Shown: positions 24,707 through 50,193 of the stretch, in pieces
How the letters are laid out: each line of letters opens with the position of its first letter
Position numbering within the stretch: the stretch's first letter is position 1
Assembly (NCBI GenBank): GCA_964570365.1
Contig: CAZMXT010000002.1
Location: 1 to 55,751 of the forward strand
Source of the DNA: an uncultured Pseudomonadales bacterium
GTDB lineage: Bacteria; Patescibacteriota; Microgenomatia; UBA1400; PJMF01
Length of the DNA stretch: 55,751 nucleotides
Direction: 5' to 3'
The notes under the pieces: model-generated
The model's input: the letters and a program-made list of their open reading frames with translations, nothing else
Database searches by the model: none
What the model was told of the DNA's origin: nothing
Position numbers and translations under genes: made by a program

Positions 24707-24780
24707 TCGGGCTGGCGGGACTCGAACCCACGACCTCACGCACCCCATGCGTGCATTCTAGCCATCTGAACTACAGCCCG
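24707..24780 (-). tRNA. tRNA-Pro(GGG), CCA not encoded
   Basis: Minus strand reads CGGGCTG...CACGC-ATGGGGT-GCGTG...GGTTCGAGTCC...CAGCCCG-A, a complete cloverleaf. Confidence 0.96.
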
Positions 24781-43570: not shown

Positions 43571-45193
43571 TTACTCAGTATACCCAAGTTTAGTGGCGGA
43601 TCGGTAGCCAAAGCGACGAGACTTCATCAAAAAGAAAGTCTCTTTGACTGCACCATAAATGACGTCCCAACGCGCGCCTGTTTGGGCGCCGTAGTGACGA
43701 GGATAGTGGGTTACACCAACCTGATCGTACACGTAATCGTGATCAATTACCTTCAACAATAGTTCGGTTGAGACCATTGCGCCGCGACTTTCTAGCGGCA
43801 TCAAGTCATCAACTACACTACGGTGGATCAATTTGAATGCACAGTCAATGTCTCGAATGGTAGATGGAAACTGGAAGAAGACGGCGTTCCAGATCTTTAG
43901 CATTTTTGCCAAAAGCAAACGCGACCACTTATCAGCACGTTTGATTCGATAGCCTATGACGGCTAAGTTTTCAGAAGTGAGAGGAACAAATTTGGTAAGT
44001 TCACCAAGATCAAACTGAAGGTCACCATCGGCAAAAAAGATCCATTCATGTTTTGCGGCGCTAAAACCAGTCTGAAGTGCACCGCCGTACCCTAAGTTTA
44101 CTTGATCAATAACGACGATGTGTTTATCTTTTTTGGCGAGTTGATGGGCAATGACAGAAGTCTTATCTTTACTCCCGTCGTTGACCACGATGATCTCGTA
44201 CTTCTCAGCGAGTTGAGGAACAACCTTTTGTGCTTGGGAAATCACCCGGGCAATATTTTCCTCTTCGTTATGCATTGGGAAGAAGACAGAGAGTGAGCGC
44301 AAACGTTGCGGGGTATTGAGTTTATGTCCCGCGATAGCCTCCACCGAAAGTGAAACAGGAGCTGACCAACCGCGAAGCTTGGTGTAGAGCTTGTAGAGCA
44401 CTGATTCAGGCAAGGAAATCACTAATGTTGCTTGGGCAAGTGTAGACACCAAACCCTGAAGGTTCGGCTTGTACCCGTGCTTAAAGACTGCATTCCAACG
44501 CGCACGTGCAATCTGCCAAAAGTCTTTCTTTGGATGGCGAGACGAGATGTTTTTGCTATGCATGCGGTAACTGAGCAGCTTATCTGGCATGTTTGCAATT
44601 TGGCCGTGCTGTAACAAACGGAATAACAGCTCATGTTCTTCAGCTGTCGCTAAGCCGTCTTCATACCAGTGAAAACCTTTTGGTAACAACATCGTGTTGA
44701 CCATCATGGTTGGTTGTTGGACGCTGGCAAAAGAAAACAGCATTTTACTGACCTGTGAAGGTTTGGTAGGAAAACGTTTATGACCAATAACTTGGCCAAA
44801 CTCGTTAATGACATCACACTGACCACCGACAGCCACAATTTCTGGATGTTTCACCAGGTACTTGAGCTGCACAGCCAAGCGGGTAGGCGAAGCGATATCA
44901 TCACTGTCCATACGCGCAATAAAGTGACTTTGGGCAAGTTTAATCGCTTTATTGGCAGTGTAGGACACACCTCGATTTTTTTGATTTCGGATGGCTTTAA
45001 TGCGTGAGTCTTTTTTTGCGAAACGCTGCAAGATCTCCCAAGAACCATCTGTAGAGTGGTCGTCAATGACAATCAGCTCCCAGTTCTTGTGAGTTTGTTT
45101 TTGAATACTTTGAAGGGCAGCCGGCAAAAACGAAACCGTGTTGTAGACCGGCATGATGATGCTGATACTTTGGTTTTGTGTATGACTTTTCAT
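43571..45193 (-). CDS. Tandem GT2-GT2 glycosyltransferase fusion
   Basis: Domain 1 IIMPVYN/IDDHSTD/RMDSDD; domain 2 (DPM1-like) VFFPMHNEE/VNDGSKD/FADGDLQF. Confidence 0.9.
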   Translation of the reverse strand: MKSHTQNQSISIIMPVYNTVSFLPAALQSIQKQTHKNWELIVIDDHSTDGSWEILQRFAKKDSRIKAIRNQKNRGVSYTANKAIKLAQSHFIARMDSDDIASPTRLAVQLKYLVKHPEIVAVGGQCDVINEFGQVIGHKRFPTKPSQVSKMLFSFASVQQPTMMVNTMLLPKGFHWYEDGLATAEEHELLFRLLQHGQIANMPDKLLSYRMHSKNISSRHPKKDFWQIARARWNAVFKHGYKPNLQGLVSTLAQATLVISLPESVLYKLYTKLRGWSAPVSLSVEAIAGHKLNTPQRLRSLSVFFPMHNEEENIARVISQAQKVVPQLAEKYEIIVVNDGSKDKTSVIAHQLAKKDKHIVVIDQVNLGYGGALQTGFSAAKHEWIFFADGDLQFDLGELTKFVPLTSENLAVIGYRIKRADKWSRLLLAKMLKIWNAVFFQFPSTIRDIDCAFKLIHRSVVDDLMPLESRGAMVSTELLLKVIDHDYVYDQVGVTHYPRHYGAQTGARWDVIYGAVKETFFLMKSRRFGYRSATKLGYTE

Positions 45194-45246
45194 GAGCCTT
45201 CTTTTATGAAACCTCAATTACTTCTACAGTTCGAATGAAACGTGGA

Positions 45247-45486
45247 TTATTTGTTGTTTTTCTTAAGCTGGAGACACTTGTTATAGATGTCTTCGACAAC
45301 CATGATGGAGTTCGTGCCAGCTTTGTTGTCTTGGTAGACAAACTTGGAAACATTCATACAACCATCGACAGACTGGCTATACATGGCTTGTTTCTGGATA
45401 CTTAAGAATGATTGACCTAAGTACGCAGCCACAGCAACACTAGCCGCTAAGACAGCTACGAATAAGATGTTTGTTGATACCTTCAT
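45247..45486 (-). CDS. Small membrane-anchored/secreted protein with a Cys pair
   Basis: MKVSTN, hydrophobic helix, VDGC...YNKCL; AAGGA RBS. Confidence 0.7.
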   Translation of the reverse strand: MKVSTNILFVAVLAASVAVAAYLGQSFLSIQKQAMYSQSVDGCMNVSKFVYQDNKAGTNSIMVVEDIYNKCLQLKKNNK

Positions 45487-45640
45487 ATCTTCCTTTTTCT
45501 TTTTAATTAACACGCTGACGTTCACAAAGTCTCACGAGTGAGGCTCTCTGAACGTCAGGCATACAGGTTTTGTAGTTAGCCCGACGTTATCTTACTGGGG
45601 GACGGTTTTTGAGGCCGTCCCTATGCGGAGTGCGAGTGTG
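45472..45640 (-). ncRNA. Structured 3' trailer that pairs with the 46394-46723 leader
   Basis: Local hairpins at 45515-45558 and 45599-45621, plus segments complementary to the leader (45472-45492, 45506-45512, 45557-45568, 45569-45591). Confidence 0.75.
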
Positions 45641-46393
45641 CTAGCTGTCGAGCGAGCTCACAACGCGATTGATTCGTGCCTGCAAGATAGGGCGCACGGT
45701 GTCCGGGACTTCATCTTCCCAGTAGTTCACGACACCACCTCCTGCCCATCCCCACACGGGGGACTCGACCAGAAGGCAGTTGCCGTTATCGCACAGGTTG
45801 TTATCGGAAGCCCCGAGTCCGACGTGCCGCGAAAACACCGTGTCGCCCGGGGCGACCATCAAGGTGTGGTTTTCGCCGGTTGAACGACGAAATTCGGGCC
45901 ACGGGGTAAGGACGACCAAACGGGCGCTGTTGGGATCCTGACTGACAACCCAGACATGATCCAGCAGTTCGGTGTCGGTGAGGTCTTCACAGTCCTCCAT
46001 CGCCACCTGCTGCTTCGCCAGTTCCCATGACAGGACGGCGATTTCGTTCATGGCTTCAGTGACGGCGGGGTTGAGTTCCCACACGACGAAACCAAAGTCC
46101 TGACCCCCCGCGTTGCGGGCGTAGGTGTCAGGCAGAAGAACAGCCTGCTGGCAGCCGCCTGTCAAGGTGGCTTCGCCATCGGCGGTCTGAAAGCGGAGAG
46201 AATGACCCACCATCGTGGCGACTTCATTCTCGGACGTACCAACGCCGGGGCGGCTTAGACCCAGTTCAGGGCCATAGCTGCTATCGGACACGCGGCGGAC
46301 ACGCCATTCGGAATCTTCTTGCGCCATCGCGGGTGCGACGGCGGTCATGAAGATGCTCATGACCAGCAGAGCGAAAAACAGTTTGGTACGCAT
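45641..46393 (-). CDS. Secreted hypothetical protein, high-GC cargo ORF
   Basis: Sec signal ending AMA-Q, four Cys, acidic; AAGGAG RBS at 46402-46407; two sampled 60-nt lines gave 60% and 62% GC. Confidence 0.85.
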   Translation of the reverse strand: MRTKLFFALLVMSIFMTAVAPAMAQEDSEWRVRRVSDSSYGPELGLSRPGVGTSENEVATMVGHSLRFQTADGEATLTGGCQQAVLLPDTYARNAGGQDFGFVVWELNPAVTEAMNEIAVLSWELAKQQVAMEDCEDLTDTELLDHVWVVSQDPNSARLVVLTPWPEFRRSTGENHTLMVAPGDTVFSRHVGLGASDNNLCDNGNCLLVESPVWGWAGGGVVNYWEDEVPDTVRPILQARINRVVSSLDS

Positions 46394-46723
46394 CGATATT
46401 GCTCCTTAGTGAGACGGTTCGAATTTTGTTCGCAGTTTTCCCTTGCGGGTACTCTGCCAGCTCTAAACGCGTCCTCAGATGAGAGAGAACACGTTGAAAG
46501 CTGACAGAATTGCGAATTCGATCATCAGGAGACTATAAATTTATCTCTTTCGAGATACCTGTATGCCTTGTTAATGTGCTCTCTTGCCTTTCACCTTGCG
46601 GTAAAAAGCAAAAGCACTTGTGCTACCGGCAGAACTCTTTGGCCGTAATGGCTAGGAGTGCTGTATATCGGCAGCGAGGTAGATACCTAATACCCACTTC
46701 GCTAAAGACATCAAAATTCAACA
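46394..46723 (-). ncRNA. Highly structured leader of about 330 nt (unassigned RNA motif)
   Basis: GCAA-, GAAA- and GCAA-capped hairpins (46576-46617, 46542-46557, 46440-46449) and a 25-bp stem (46451-46510); G-U pairs work on the minus strand only. Confidence 0.85.
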
Positions 46724-46729
46724 GGTCAT

Positions 46730-46758
46730 ACTATATCAAAATACTGTCCATTTGTCAA
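46730..46758 (-). promoter_or_regulatory. Consensus sigma70 promoter driving the structured RNA/cargo unit
   Basis: TTGACA (46753-46758)-17 nt-TATAGT (46730-46735) with extended TG. Confidence 0.85.
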
Positions 46759-46914
46759 TGTTATAGGCTTATTAAGCCTAGTTGGTGGGTTTGGGGTACA
46801 TTCTATCTCAAAAAAGCAGCGATCTGCCAAGAAAATAGAGTGAGTGTATACTCTTGCTAAAGCTTTTCTGCATCACAAAATTCTGTCTAAGTTAGTTACA
46901 ATCGATCAAGCAGT

Positions 46915-49900
46915 ATGAAAAAAATCTGGGAGTTACTTCAGCTTCATTGGCCAAAACTACTTTTGTGTTTTATTTGGCTGGCCATCGTTGTCACCAACTA
47001 CCAGCCAGGTACTTGGTTAAGTGGTTGGGATAATTTACACCCTGAATTTGACTTTTGGTTAAGTGTAAAAAGATCTTTTTCGGCTACATGGCAAGAATAC
47101 CAGGGAGTGGGCTTACTGGGTGGCATGAGCCATGCCGCAGATGTCACCCGCCAACTATTTCTATGGGCTCTATCATTTGTTTTCCCCCGTGACACATTGC
47201 GTTACATCTGGCATTTCTTAATGTTACTCATCGGACCACTGGGTGTACTGTCCCTGGCTACTTTCTTACTTTCACCAAAGTCGTCTCGGAAGAAACTAAG
47301 TCTTAAGGCTGCTAGTTTTATGGCTGGCTCATTTTATTTACTCAATTTAGCTACTGTTCAATACTTCTTTACTCCTTTTGAAACTTTTTCTAGCTTCTAC
47401 GGGTTTTTACCTTGGCTATTATATGGCGCGCTACGCTACTTAAAGTCACACAGTTCCAAAGATTTACTGCTCTTCTTTGCTATCTCAGTAGCAGCTAGTT
47501 CTGCCTTTTATGTCCAAACTTTATTTGTGGTTTATAGCTTGGTTTTGGGGATTTTTATGCTTAATGCTGCTTGGCCGTTTAGGGCTTTACAACTCAAAGC
47601 CTCTCTTAAACTAGCCCTAACAATTCTAGCCAGTAATGCTTTCTGGTTACTACCATCACTTTACTTTACCTTAACCGCCTCTGTTACCACGCTTCAAGCC
47701 AAACAAAATGTGATTTCCACTCCAGAAGTTCAGTATATGAATCAATACTTTGGGACTTTATCTGATATTGCCTTACTCAAAGGGTATTGGTTTAATTATC
47801 TTGACTTTGATACCTCACAGAAGAAGCCTGTCTTTTTATTTCAAGCTTGGCGAGATCACTTAGCTCAGTCACCCACGCAATGGGTAGGTTTTAGTTTTTT
47901 TATCATGGCAGTGCTAGGAATAATCTTTTTGATTAAAAAGAAAAACTTTGCTTTTGCTCCGGCCATTGCTTTTGTTTTTGCGCTGGTGGTTTTAATTCTG
48001 ACTGCCGGCAACGGTATCTTTGGGGTGGGTTTTACTTTTTTGTCTGACCACGTACCCTTGTTTGGCCAAATTTTTAGAACTGTTTTTACTAAATGGTCAA
48101 TTGTGGCTGCGCTCATTTACAGTTTAGGTTTATTTAATTTTTTTCACACTTTACTCAGTTTTAGAATGCATCGTTTTGCTGCCTACCTCAGATTACTGAT
48201 CGTACCCCTCTTTATCAGTCTGTTAATCTTCTACACCTTACCAATTTTTAAAGGTCATTTTCTGGCTGACTTAGTCCGAGTTAAGATTCCCACGCCCTAC
48301 TTTGAATTATTTAGTTTTTTCAAAACGCAACCTAAACAAGCTCGAATTGCTTCTTTTCCCGTTCAGTCTGGGTGGGGCTGGGGGCTGCATACCTGGAAAT
48401 ATAGTGGTAGCGGTTTTTTGTGGTATGGGATTGAACAACCAATTTTAGATCGAGCCTTTGATGTTTGGAGTCCTCACAATGAAACCTATTTCAACCAGAT
48501 TTCTGAGGCAGTCTACGGTAATGATCCTCAAGCCCTAGCTAATACGCTAAAACAGTATCAAGTGTCGTATCTTTTGATTGATGAAAGCATTACCACCTAC
48601 GACCGCGACCAAGCCTTTTTATTTTTCCCTGAAACTAAAAATTTGTTAAGCCAAATTGGCGCAAAAGTCGTCTGGCAAAAAGATTTCTTAACTATTTATC
48701 AAACTCCATTTAGTTCTCGTTCTTTTCTTAATGCTCCAGCTAGTTTTAGTCATATTGATGTTAATACGGTTTACGGTCGAAGGGATCAAGCCTTTGCGCA
48801 ATACGGCAATTACATTTCGCTTAATAACATTGAAACTGAACTACCCTCAGTAATTTTGCCTTTTCATAGTTTGTATTCTACAAACCTTAAAGATATGGCC
48901 GTTGAGAATCAGAAGGTGGTAATTAGAAAAAATGTCCCGCTTCACGGACAAACTCAAGTGGTAATACCAGCCTTAGCCACTGGTCAGAACTATACAACTC
49001 CAGCCGAAATTAGCTACAGCAATGCTCAGATATCAATTACTTTTCCCATTCCCAAACTAGATATCAATGATCACTCATTTACTCTGGCTCAGCTCCCAGC
49101 AGTGTCAATCAAGGCTCCAGTGGCTTCAGAGAATATTGTGCTCCAGATAGCTGACCAGCAAATTTACCTTAAACCTCAGCAACTAGTTTCAGTCAGTTTT
49201 GTTTTACCGGCTGGTAAAGAAATATCTGCTTCAGTTTTTGATGAAGCAGATATTGACTTCTCCACTTCTGAGCCTGTCATTGGTCAAGAAGATGTGATTG
49301 AAGATGTTCTCTCTCCTAGCATCTGGACAGAGTTGCTTAACCCTCAGACCTTCCCAGTTAGTCCGGAAAATAACTCAGTTAATTTAGCCATTTCATTGCC
49401 CGTCACCGCCCAAACCATTCCTTCCACCCAATCTTCAGATACAAATTGTGATGCTTTTCAACGAGGTGAATTTACCAATCTAACAGAAGGGGCTAAAACT
49501 TTTTTTACCGCTGATAATTTTGCGATTCTCTGCCATATTTCGAATGTATATCCGGTCTCAACTCGTAACAGCTATTTAGTTCATATTAAAGGCGAAAATC
49601 TTCTAGGGCGCAGCTTGCGACTCTTTGTCTACAATAAAGAAACAAACCGTTCTGATCTGGAAGAAATTTTACCCAAGAAAAAATTTGATAGTTTTTACAG
49701 TCTTTTGAGTTGGCCATTAATACCAGAAAATTTTTACGATTTAAATTTAGTGACTCGTTCATTTGGCCAGAAAAGTCAGAATGTAACTGAAAAAGTTGAG
49801 ATCTACCCTTTTCCTCTAGAGTATGTATCACAGATTTACCTGTCTGCGGCTGATACCCAGAGCTCACTCAATCTTAAGAATTCCACCAAGCTTTCTCAAA

Positions 49901-50193
49901 CTTGGAAACGGGAGACCTATCAATACGGTGGCCATGTAACCGCAGCTAGTAATTCCGGACTACTGACCTTAGGTCAAGGTTACAACTCAGGCTGGATCGC
50001 TTTTAGTTTGCAACGCTTCCAAATATTACCCCATGTCAAATATAACGGCTGGGCCAACGCCTGGATTTTGCCTGAAGGCAACTACAGCTTTGTGATTTTC
50101 TATCTGCCACAATTATTTAATACTTTTGGCTTCCTTCTTTTAGCTGTTACATTAGCTTTCTTGGTTCGAGCACTGCGAAAAAATGTAAGCTAA
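46915..50193 (+). CDS. Large GT-C-like membrane protein (YfhO/AftD-like architecture)
   Basis: 1092 aa, about 12 N-terminal TMs (GWDNLHPE, QIFRTVFTKW), beta-rich ectodomain, C-terminal QGYNSGWIA...YNGWANAW and TM. Confidence 0.75.
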   Translation: MKKIWELLQLHWPKLLLCFIWLAIVVTNYQPGTWLSGWDNLHPEFDFWLSVKRSFSATWQEYQGVGLLGGMSHAADVTRQLFLWALSFVFPRDTLRYIWHFLMLLIGPLGVLSLATFLLSPKSSRKKLSLKAASFMAGSFYLLNLATVQYFFTPFETFSSFYGFLPWLLYGALRYLKSHSSKDLLLFFAISVAASSAFYVQTLFVVYSLVLGIFMLNAAWPFRALQLKASLKLALTILASNAFWLLPSLYFTLTASVTTLQAKQNVISTPEVQYMNQYFGTLSDIALLKGYWFNYLDFDTSQKKPVFLFQAWRDHLAQSPTQWVGFSFFIMAVLGIIFLIKKKNFAFAPAIAFVFALVVLILTAGNGIFGVGFTFLSDHVPLFGQIFRTVFTKWSIVAALIYSLGLFNFFHTLLSFRMHRFAAYLRLLIVPLFISLLIFYTLPIFKGHFLADLVRVKIPTPYFELFSFFKTQPKQARIASFPVQSGWGWGLHTWKYSGSGFLWYGIEQPILDRAFDVWSPHNETYFNQISEAVYGNDPQALANTLKQYQVSYLLIDESITTYDRDQAFLFFPETKNLLSQIGAKVVWQKDFLTIYQTPFSSRSFLNAPASFSHIDVNTVYGRRDQAFAQYGNYISLNNIETELPSVILPFHSLYSTNLKDMAVENQKVVIRKNVPLHGQTQVVIPALATGQNYTTPAEISYSNAQISITFPIPKLDINDHSFTLAQLPAVSIKAPVASENIVLQIADQQIYLKPQQLVSVSFVLPAGKEISASVFDEADIDFSTSEPVIGQEDVIEDVLSPSIWTELLNPQTFPVSPENNSVNLAISLPVTAQTIPSTQSSDTNCDAFQRGEFTNLTEGAKTFFTADNFAILCHISNVYPVSTRNSYLVHIKGENLLGRSLRLFVYNKETNRSDLEEILPKKKFDSFYSLLSWPLIPENFYDLNLVTRSFGQKSQNVTEKVEIYPFPLEYVSQIYLSAADTQSSLNLKNSTKLSQTWKRETYQYGGHVTAASNSGLLTLGQGYNSGWIAFSLQRFQILPHVKYNGWANAWILPEGNYSFVIFYLPQLFNTFGFLLLAVTLAFLVRALRKNVS

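Follow-up and report, generated by a model that had tools for sequence, protein, structure and literature searches.

Genomic context of the leader

The stretch of DNA under study (hereafter the window) consists of the first 55,751 bases of contig C2 in the 1.06-Mb genome of a CPR (Patescibacteria) bacterium; this genome comprises 28 contigs, is 97% complete and has a G+C content of 44%. The segment of interest, positions 46394-46723 on the minus strand, sits within a 521-nt gap separating two divergent genes, both of which are open under translation table 11. One of them encodes a large membrane protein. The other encodes an exported orphan protein and is followed on its 3' side by genes for a 92-aa membrane protein and a family-2 glycosyltransferase (GT2). 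The genes and expression signals of the region are as follows:

46915-50193, plus strand: 1092-aa membrane protein, the divergent neighbour of the leader
46730-46758, minus strand: sigma-70-type promoter, TTGACA-17 nt-(TG)TATAGT, with 11 of 12 matching positions and a TG extending the -10
46407-46402, minus strand: SD sequence AAGGAG, 8 nt 5' of the ATG
46393-46391, minus strand: start codon ATG, at the end of the leader
45641-46393, minus strand: 250-aa ORF, an exported orphan with a signal peptide-like N-terminus, which the leader is proposed to control

Judging from the position of the promoter, transcription would start at about 46723, and a scan of the window revealed no terminator-like site between the promoter and the ORF. 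The promoter consensus, with an upstream CCTATAA element, also occurs in related genera, and the family-wide form, CCTATAAnATTGACAAATGGAC...GATATAnTAT, precedes other genes as well.

Predicted secondary structure

The minus strand of the interval has a minimum free energy of -129 kcal/mol, against -84.7 +/- 4.5 kcal/mol for 100 dinucleotide shuffles, none of which is as stable (z -9.94); the z-score for the plus strand of the same interval is -3.82. This agrees with the original prediction, in which a strand-specific RNA was proposed on the basis of its G-U pairs, and such pairs make up 17 of the 117 in the predicted fold. The individual hairpins listed there are likewise all present in the sequence and in the minimum-energy folds, as are the three GNRA loops that it claimed (GCAA, GAAA and GCAA). 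The box and the anti-SD, which are central to what follows, were absent from that list. From 5' to 3' on the transcribed strand, the following elements are predicted:

46702-46709, minus strand: second, 5'-proximal anti-SD-like stretch GUCUUUAG, partner of the SD in an alternative predicted fold
About 46675-46703, minus strand: predicted hairpin P1, kept through changed pairs in a relative from another genus
46622-46675, minus strand: predicted helix P2, GCUGCCG (46675-46669) with CGGUAGC (46628-46622), enclosing an inner hairpin
46576-46617, minus strand: predicted GCAA-capped hairpin P3, stopping 1-2 nt 5' of the box
46558-46574, minus strand: conserved box UUAACAAGGCAUACAGG, the family hallmark, predicted to be single-stranded or in alternative pairings
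46542-46557, minus strand: predicted hairpin P4, UAUCUC-GAAA-GAGAUA
46526-46532, minus strand: anti-SD UCUCCUG, partner of the SD in one predicted fold
46411-46523, minus strand: variable 3' domain, with predicted closing stems, a 14+11-bp hairpin (46510-46451) and CCC-GCAA-GGG (46449-46440)

The structure extends to the SD and takes it in. Two near-isoenergetic folds are predicted, and in each the SD is masked by a different partner: UCUCCUG (46532-46526) in one, and GUCUUUAG (46709-46702) in the other, which has an energy of -128 kcal/mol and pairs SD positions 46407-46403 with 46704-46708. The 5' end of the leader is paired in both. When the ribosome-binding site is kept open during folding, the CCUG of the anti-SD pairs with the CAGG of the box (46561-46558). 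The predicted cost of opening this site is ordinary, 5.8 kcal/mol compared with 6.8 +/- 2.7 kcal/mol for 40 control genes; values for other leaders of the family range from 4.0 to 14.9 kcal/mol.

Comparison with described RNA families

The leader belongs to no described family among those tested. With Rfam 15 at gathering scores, nothing was detected in the whole window except a tRNA at 24707-24780. When the region 46200-47000 was searched at E<=10, the best match was mir-8338, with 28.6 bits against a gathering score of 80, and a search with 13 related leaders at E<=0.1 yielded two matches at chance level and no family. In particular, the raiA motif (RF03072) has no match in the window leader in the Rfam search, and the SRP RNA and 6S RNA models (RF00169, RF01854 and RF00013) have none in the genome, leader included. 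The Rfam comparison that had been suggested with the original prediction thus identifies an uncatalogued structured RNA in leader position. A search of article listings on structured RNAs of CPR bacteria and of passages of the review PMC11665869 revealed no leader of this type.

Close relatives and strain variation

A genome from another genus of the same family (G117) carries a leader with 68% identity by BLAST over the promoter and the first ~120 nt, which include P1-P3. It precedes an unrelated, equally GC-rich exported protein, and its own fold has a z-score of -7.6. The similarity of the two promoters can be attributed to the family-wide promoter consensus. RNAalifold applied to the two leaders gave 41 pairs, 10 of which are changed on both sides. 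A covariance model of P1-P3 (R1) recovered only G117 among 139 other genomes of the family; it also matches a near-identical metagenome contig (L025). Homologues of the 3' domain were found only in near-identical strains (L025 and a contig of sequencing run X13) and none past these.

Variation at the strain level was assessed on contigs; DNA of the organism itself is present in sequencing runs X1-X9. The variant contig of run X13 aligns with the window over 46315-46686, where 19 letters differ and 10 are gaps. Unlike the leader, two stretches of the ORF in this contig are too diverged for alignment. Eight of the 13 listed differences in the leader affect unpaired bases, and the loop of the long hairpin accounts for six of these eight. 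Contigs from a more abundant relative (runs X9-X11) match the upstream gene and the promoter (46730-46900) and diverge exactly below 46730, just past the -10 hexamer. The same promoter therefore appears to drive a different transcribed cassette in that relative.

Two coding explanations of the interval were considered and rejected. A 116-aa antisense ORF spans 46510-46860; G117 has stops in all three frames, and the mismatches between the sequences are spread over the codon positions (18/56, 26/56 and 23/56). The interval might also be a decayed N-terminal coding region of the downstream gene, of which homologues with a longer N-terminus exist, yet the closest relatives begin as the window ORF does.

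A conserved box defines a wider leader family

Short BLAST matches between P3 and P4 led to a box, UUAACAAGGCAUACAG, that recurs in long intergenic leaders of other genera. This near-invariant and predicted single-stranded element, CUCUUUAACA(A)GGCAUACAGG, is the hallmark of the family, and it exists in two main forms, CUCUUUAACAAGGCAUACAG and CUCUUUAACAGGCAUACAGG. It may resemble a conserved stretch of 16S rRNA. Members of the family carry the box as UUAACA(A)GGCAUACAG on the sense strand, 5' of an SD-led ORF. The window leader is one of them: the exact 12-mer lies at 46574-46563, and the start codon is 181 nt 3' of the box.

In the 140 family genomes, 24 of which contain it, the 12-mer has 28 matches, compared with 11 for its reversed control; 13 of the 28 are intergenic and show the extended consensus. 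The box and its flanking sequence were turned into a profile (R2) using 16 seeds, including the window, which as a seed scores 39.7 bits (E 2.8e-10). At E<=0.05 this profile matches 58 of the 140 family genomes, counting the unpublished genome G066; at E<=1e-3 it matches only 32, each with a single match, and 14 of these 32 were seeds. The window genome contains one real copy of the box. A candidate second copy (C12:5390-5450, E 0.02) falls inside a coding frame and was discarded.

The box extends beyond the family. Among 151 genomes sampled across the order, 18 match R2 at E<=1e-3, and in other families of the order it was found in 12 of 126 sampled genomes (8/24 in f10, 2/6 in f9, 1/2 in f4 and 1/24 in f15). 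Seven of these 12 were inspected: six show the context of the box and one is a false match on a real SD. The 16-mer has 19 matches in viral contigs, all of them lacking the extended context CUCU, and the 18-mer variant has none there; on these grounds there is no sign of a phage origin of the box.

The position of the box is constrained. It lies 135-850 nt 5' of the start codon, on the sense strand in every case, and an SD-led ORF follows it in 26 of 30 family loci, the other four having either no such ORF or too little DNA. A consensus promoter lies 148-294 nt 5' of the box in 7 of 13 members, which would place the box inside the transcript. No conserved -10 element was found 3' of the box.

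Stems and anti-SD sequences around the box

The P3 stem stops at most 4 nt from the box in 25 of 30 leaders, and in the window it ends 1 nt 5' of the box. An alignment of this stem (A10), produced with a third model grown from 4 seeds, comprises 10 pairs in 22 leaders, including that of the window (row L064). Standard pairs occupy 92.5% of its 174 cells, against 75.1 +/- 1.8 in shuffled alignments and 42-66% in slid controls, and 9 of the 10 pairs are changed on both sides, against 3.9 +/- 1.0 when shuffled, figures biased towards structure because the alignment was fitted to the model. The stem was also sought by plain complementarity. In 19 of 30 leaders (4.6 expected), the 10 nt 5' of the box have an ungapped complement of at least 7 pairs no more than 80 nt upstream, and the mean best complement run is 6.97, against 5.42 +/- 0.20, a value equalled by none of 300 shuffle sets. 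A cruder test based on hairpin positions gave a weak signal (12/30, where shuffles averaged 7.05 and reached at most 11), and RNAalifold detected only 3 pairs in a plain MAFFT alignment of 12 leaders, which is not structure-aware.

On the other side of the box, local folds give stems within 65 nt in all 30 leaders. These P4-type stems start about 1 to 30 nt past ACAG, and only some open directly there. In several leaders the end of the box (CAGG or AGGA) pairs, in local folds, with a downstream CCUG or UCCU at the base of the first stem.

The sequence CUCCU is enriched in this downstream region. Of 29 leaders, 12 contain it at +16 to +110 of the box, compared with 1.4 +/- 1.1 in mononucleotide shuffles (maximum 5 in 500), 3 in reversed segments and 4 in upstream segments; it is absent from the other 17. 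Partition-function folds of 24 leaders give a mean pairing probability of 0.80 for the SD, and in 12 of the 24 its main predicted partner is a CUCC-type stretch located 20-80 nt past the box. The window belongs to this group, the UCUCCUG at 46532-46526 being its predicted SD partner. In genus g7, P4, CUCCU and a run of U together resemble an intrinsic terminator.

Other parts of the leader are less widely shared. The region 5' of the box differs widely among genera, save for the base of P3. Block 1, GCUGC[AC]GA, which corresponds to the 5' strand of P2, is found 101-175 nt 5' of the box in 8 of 30 leaders, so P1 and P2 mark a sub-family; in the relatives' folds, as read by eye, the partner strands of P2 are unlike that of the window. 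The GNRA loops, P1, P2 and the 3' domain are not part of the conserved core of the family.

The search for homologues in CPR genomes that accompanied the original prediction as a suggestion has thus led, by way of the box, to a wider family of leaders. With this family, its compensatory changes and the lack of an Rfam match, the proposal of a new ncRNA or cis-regulatory motif is strengthened; nothing was found in support of the more specific functions then considered, namely GNRA-receptor contacts, ligand binding or ribozyme activity.

Genes downstream of the leaders

The proteins encoded downstream of the box share little except their likely destination. Of the 26 SD-led downstream ORFs, 25 have a hydrophobic segment at the N-terminus (a Sec signal, a lipoprotein signal or an anchor), compared with 247 of the 884 ORFs of the window genome, and the window ORF, with its signal peptide-like N-terminus, is among the former. 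No Pfam family was recognised in 22 of 25 downstream proteins, the exceptions being one with SLBB/HHH and two with SH3. By BLAST, they fall into five small families and many singletons, amounting to at least 15 unrelated orphan exported proteins without a metabolic theme. The downstream genes are also GC-richer than the rest of their locus (mean +0.131, and more than 0.05 in 23 of 26). The window ORF has 60% GC, and its GC3 of 0.70 is the highest of the 884 ORFs (0.43 +/- 0.07). The other genes of high GC3 in this genome are not evident candidates for high expression. Several members of the family are found in the neighbourhood of GT2 genes and of homologues of the large membrane protein.

The window protein itself has 9 homologues in a large protein collection and no match in Pfam. 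Its AlphaFold2 model is of moderate quality (pLDDT 74, pTM 0.67), and a Foldseek comparison of this model with the PDB produced no match at E<=0.001, the TM never exceeding 0.23.

The placing of one type of promoter and leader before unrelated exported proteins in different genomes is reminiscent of the UHB/Erp expression modules of Borrelia. Unlike these, the leaders described here occur as one copy per genome and do not serve a multigene family, and the shared part consists of an RNA box and stems found across the order, with no recent duplication.

A possible switch at the ribosome-binding site

Taken together, the position, folding and conservation of the interval 46394-46723 lead us to regard it, with somewhat better than even confidence, as a cis-acting 5' leader in which the anti-SD would switch between the SD and the AGG of the box, under the control of a factor that binds the box. 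The leader would form the ~330-nt 5' UTR of the mRNA for the 250-aa exported protein, transcribed from the promoter at 46758-46730. The core of the family would be arranged as P3, box, P4, often a CUCCU anti-SD, a variable 3' domain, and finally the SD and start codon. Such a leader would act in cis on the initiation of translation and probably also on the stability of the mRNA. Pairing of the anti-SD with the SD would close the 3' domain and mask the ribosome-binding site, while pairing of the anti-SD with the AGG/CAGG of the box would extend P4 and free the site. The balance between the two states may be set by a factor that recognises the box beside P3; a protein, a ligand and the ribosome are all conceivable in this role. 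Such a factor is suggested by the conservation of the box, which goes far beyond the needs of pairing.

Leaders controlled by CsrA/RsmA offer one precedent for a protein acting at such a site. Targets of this regulator carry GGA motifs, one of which overlaps the SD. The box is similar in being a short purine-rich motif (AAGGCA / CAGGAAA), unpaired or in a loop, with a related sequence at the SD. It differs in having GGC in place of GGA, in being much longer and in occurring once per leader and about once per genome. Moreover, neither CsrA (PF02599) nor Hfq was found in the 97%-complete genome; with no PF02599 and with GGC in its box, the window leader does not fall among CsrA leaders.

Alternative functions of the leader

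The leader might instead be constitutive, a structured 5' UTR that stabilises the mRNA and sets a fixed, high level of translation of an abundant exported or surface protein, with no switch and no sensing. S-layer (slpA) and ompA mRNAs have long structured 5' UTRs of this kind, described as stabilisers. The window leader is like them in its strong promoter, its length of hundreds of nucleotides and its stable stems beginning at the 5' end, and in preceding the gene of an exported protein at a single locus per genome. Several observations fit: the near-consensus promoter, the pairing from the 5' end onwards, the export of the products, the ordinary opening cost of the ribosome-binding site, the envelope and glycosylation genes (GT2, large membrane protein) that are neighbours here and near other members too, and the relative that keeps the promoter and carries another transcribed cassette. 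However, stabilisation requires stems and not a near-invariant single-stranded box of 16-25 nt kept across families of the order. To our knowledge, the slpA and ompA leaders share no conserved sequence box across genera; the window family has such a box together with an enriched anti-SD, and there is no sequence or Rfam relationship between them and the window leader. The enrichment of the anti-SD and its two alternative partners would also be left unexplained. High expression would be putative, and a high GC3 is no mark of known highly expressed genes in this genome. A purely constitutive role is a minor possibility, if the likeliest of these alternatives.

Part of the same evidence could be read as a riboswitch for a metabolite or an ion, with P2, P3 and the box as aptamer and P4, the anti-SD and the SD as expression platform. 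As in translational riboswitches and other SD-sequestering leaders, CUCCU of the window has two possible partners, the SD and an SD-like AGG within a conserved element further upstream, and covarying stems flank conserved unpaired bases. The alternative predicted partners of the anti-SD and the terminator-like P4, CUCCU and U run of genus g7 are what an expression platform might look like, and, as there is no match in Rfam, such a riboswitch would represent a new class. On the other hand, conservation is limited to the box and the base of P3, unlike a ligand pocket, which is built from several conserved junction strands. No known aptamer is present, the upstream domains vary between genera and the ribosome-binding site is not unusually costly to open. 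The controlled genes, at least 15 unrelated orphan exported proteins, have no metabolic theme, and there is one copy per genome. A riboswitch in this sense appears unlikely.

P1-P3 and the box could also form a small RNA with its own function, made independently or processed from the 5' part of the leader, and lying 5' of the ORF by position only. Such an RNA would have its own strong promoter and would be present in a single copy per genome, as housekeeping RNAs are; since neither 6S RNA nor SRP RNA was found in the genome, some RNA roles may be vacant. Against this, no terminator precedes the window ORF, the structure reaches into the SD, and the box is always in sense orientation and 5' of an SD-led ORF where the locus is readable (26 of 30). 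Its occurrence in 32 of 140 genomes at E<=1e-3 is too patchy for a housekeeping RNA. We consider this explanation quite improbable.

Finally, a contiguous, near-invariant stretch of 16-25 bp with variable flanks has the look of a protein-binding DNA site, whether an operator bound by a transcription factor or an element of an internal promoter, beside which the RNA folds would be secondary, but this is very improbable for a box that is not palindromic, is always in sense orientation 135-850 nt before the start codon, lies 148-294 nt past a consensus promoter in 7 of 13 members, has a covarying RNA stem within 4 nt in 25 of 30 leaders and is not followed by a conserved -10.

The SRP pathway in the class

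A separate observation concerns protein export in this lineage. The SRP pathway (Ffh, FtsY and SRP RNA) was not found in the class to which the organism belongs. In the window genome, searches for small and large SRP RNA, for the SRP54 M domain and for SRP54-type GTPases were all negative, and six-frame translation revealed no DT[AS]GR motif. RF00169 was detected in 0 of 41 genomes of the family and PF00448 in 0 of 5 genomes rated 100% complete; a search of 61 genomes from the class with PF00448 gave nothing beyond weak, partial P-loop matches (at most 22.6 bits). The controls for these searches were positive in at least 10 and up to all 14 of the known genomes, varying with the family used. 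No report of an absence of the SRP pathway in this class was seen among the article listings and the passages of PMC8321541 searched. Such an absence, if true, would be important in its own right.

Biological implications

Returning to the proposed anti-SD switch, one may ask what a conserved box would achieve in front of so many unrelated proteins. The box and its stems could be the docking site of a lineage-specific factor tying synthesis of the one fast-evolving, GC-rich exported protein of each genome to a signal such as contact with a host. In its boldest form, this idea would make the leader an RNA device for pausing translation or for taking the mRNA with its ribosome to the membrane, in a class where no SRP pathway was found. 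This is a highly speculative extension, to which we attach little credence.

No published conserved cis-regulatory RNA of uncultivated Pacebacteria-like CPR bacteria was found. The box provides a short, searchable mark for one exported, fast-evolving orphan protein in each box-bearing genome, near genes for envelope and glycosylation functions, and the orphan proteins so marked are natural candidates for surface or host-contact functions. The leader family, with its box, anti-SD and covarying stem, offers testable material on gene control in ultra-small bacteria, and the leader could serve as a native expression leader.

Promoter and the cassettes behind it

The promoter that precedes the leader in the window follows a consensus common to the whole family, with a CCTATAA element upstream (CCTATAAnATTGACAAATGGAC...TATTTTGATATAnTAT), and promoter and element together are conserved between genera at the nucleotide level.

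Family-wide promoter consensus
46730-46770, minus strand: window promoter; same consensus at loci L003, L004, L005, L008, L010 and L015

Contigs of a relative, known from sequencing runs X9-X11, retain the upstream gene and the promoter (window 46730-46900) and part from the window exactly past the -10 hexamer (below 46730). In this relative, the same promoter is followed by another cassette, which is predicted to be transcribed.

Composition and gene neighbourhood

Genes behind the leader family are richer in GC than their surroundings, by 0.131 on average (loci L062-L091), and the excess is above 0.05 in 23 of 26; the window's ORF (45641-46393, minus strand), encoding a 250-aa exported orphan protein, has the highest GC3 among 884 ORFs. 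As a source of this high GC, horizontal transfer does not fit, the trait being common to numerous unrelated proteins across many genera. In P0003, a homologue of this protein from a metagenome, a stretch of about 21 residues is duplicated in tandem within the chain, relative to the protein of the window.

The genes that often adjoin leader loci encode glycosyltransferases of family 2, small membrane proteins or homologues of the 1092-aa membrane protein that is encoded divergently from the window's leader; such neighbours hint at a surface-glycoconjugate setting.

Glycosyltransferase and membrane-protein neighbours
43571-45525: window neighbours on one side
46915-50193, plus strand: 1092-aa membrane protein
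Other loci: L015, L067, L068, L069, L083 and L097

SRP pathway and other RNAs

Whole-genome searches of the window's genome (G000) gave no match to the small or large SRP RNA (RF00169, RF01854), the SRP54 M domain (PF02978) or the SRP54-type GTPase (PF00448), and the DT[AS]GR motif is absent from its six-frame translation. RF00169 matched none of 41 family genomes. PF00448 matched none of five genomes rated 100% complete, and across 61 class genomes it gave weak, partial P-loop matches only. As judged from such searches, the SRP pathway was not found in G000 or in the genomes searched from its family and class; no published description of its absence appeared among the papers listed by literature searches.

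Searches of G000 for 6S RNA, CsrA and Hfq found none of the three. The match to RNase P RNA, at positions 48-378 of contig C27, scores 99.8 bits, slightly below the family gathering score of 100.

Terminator-like leaders

In genus g7, the hairpin 3' of the conserved single-stranded box, together with CUCCU and a U run, resembles an intrinsic terminator.

Terminator-like leaders of genus g7
L067 (genome G009)
L065 (genome G007)
L072 (genome G010)

Some members of the leader family may therefore act through transcription attenuation, instead of or alongside masking of the Shine-Dalgarno site.
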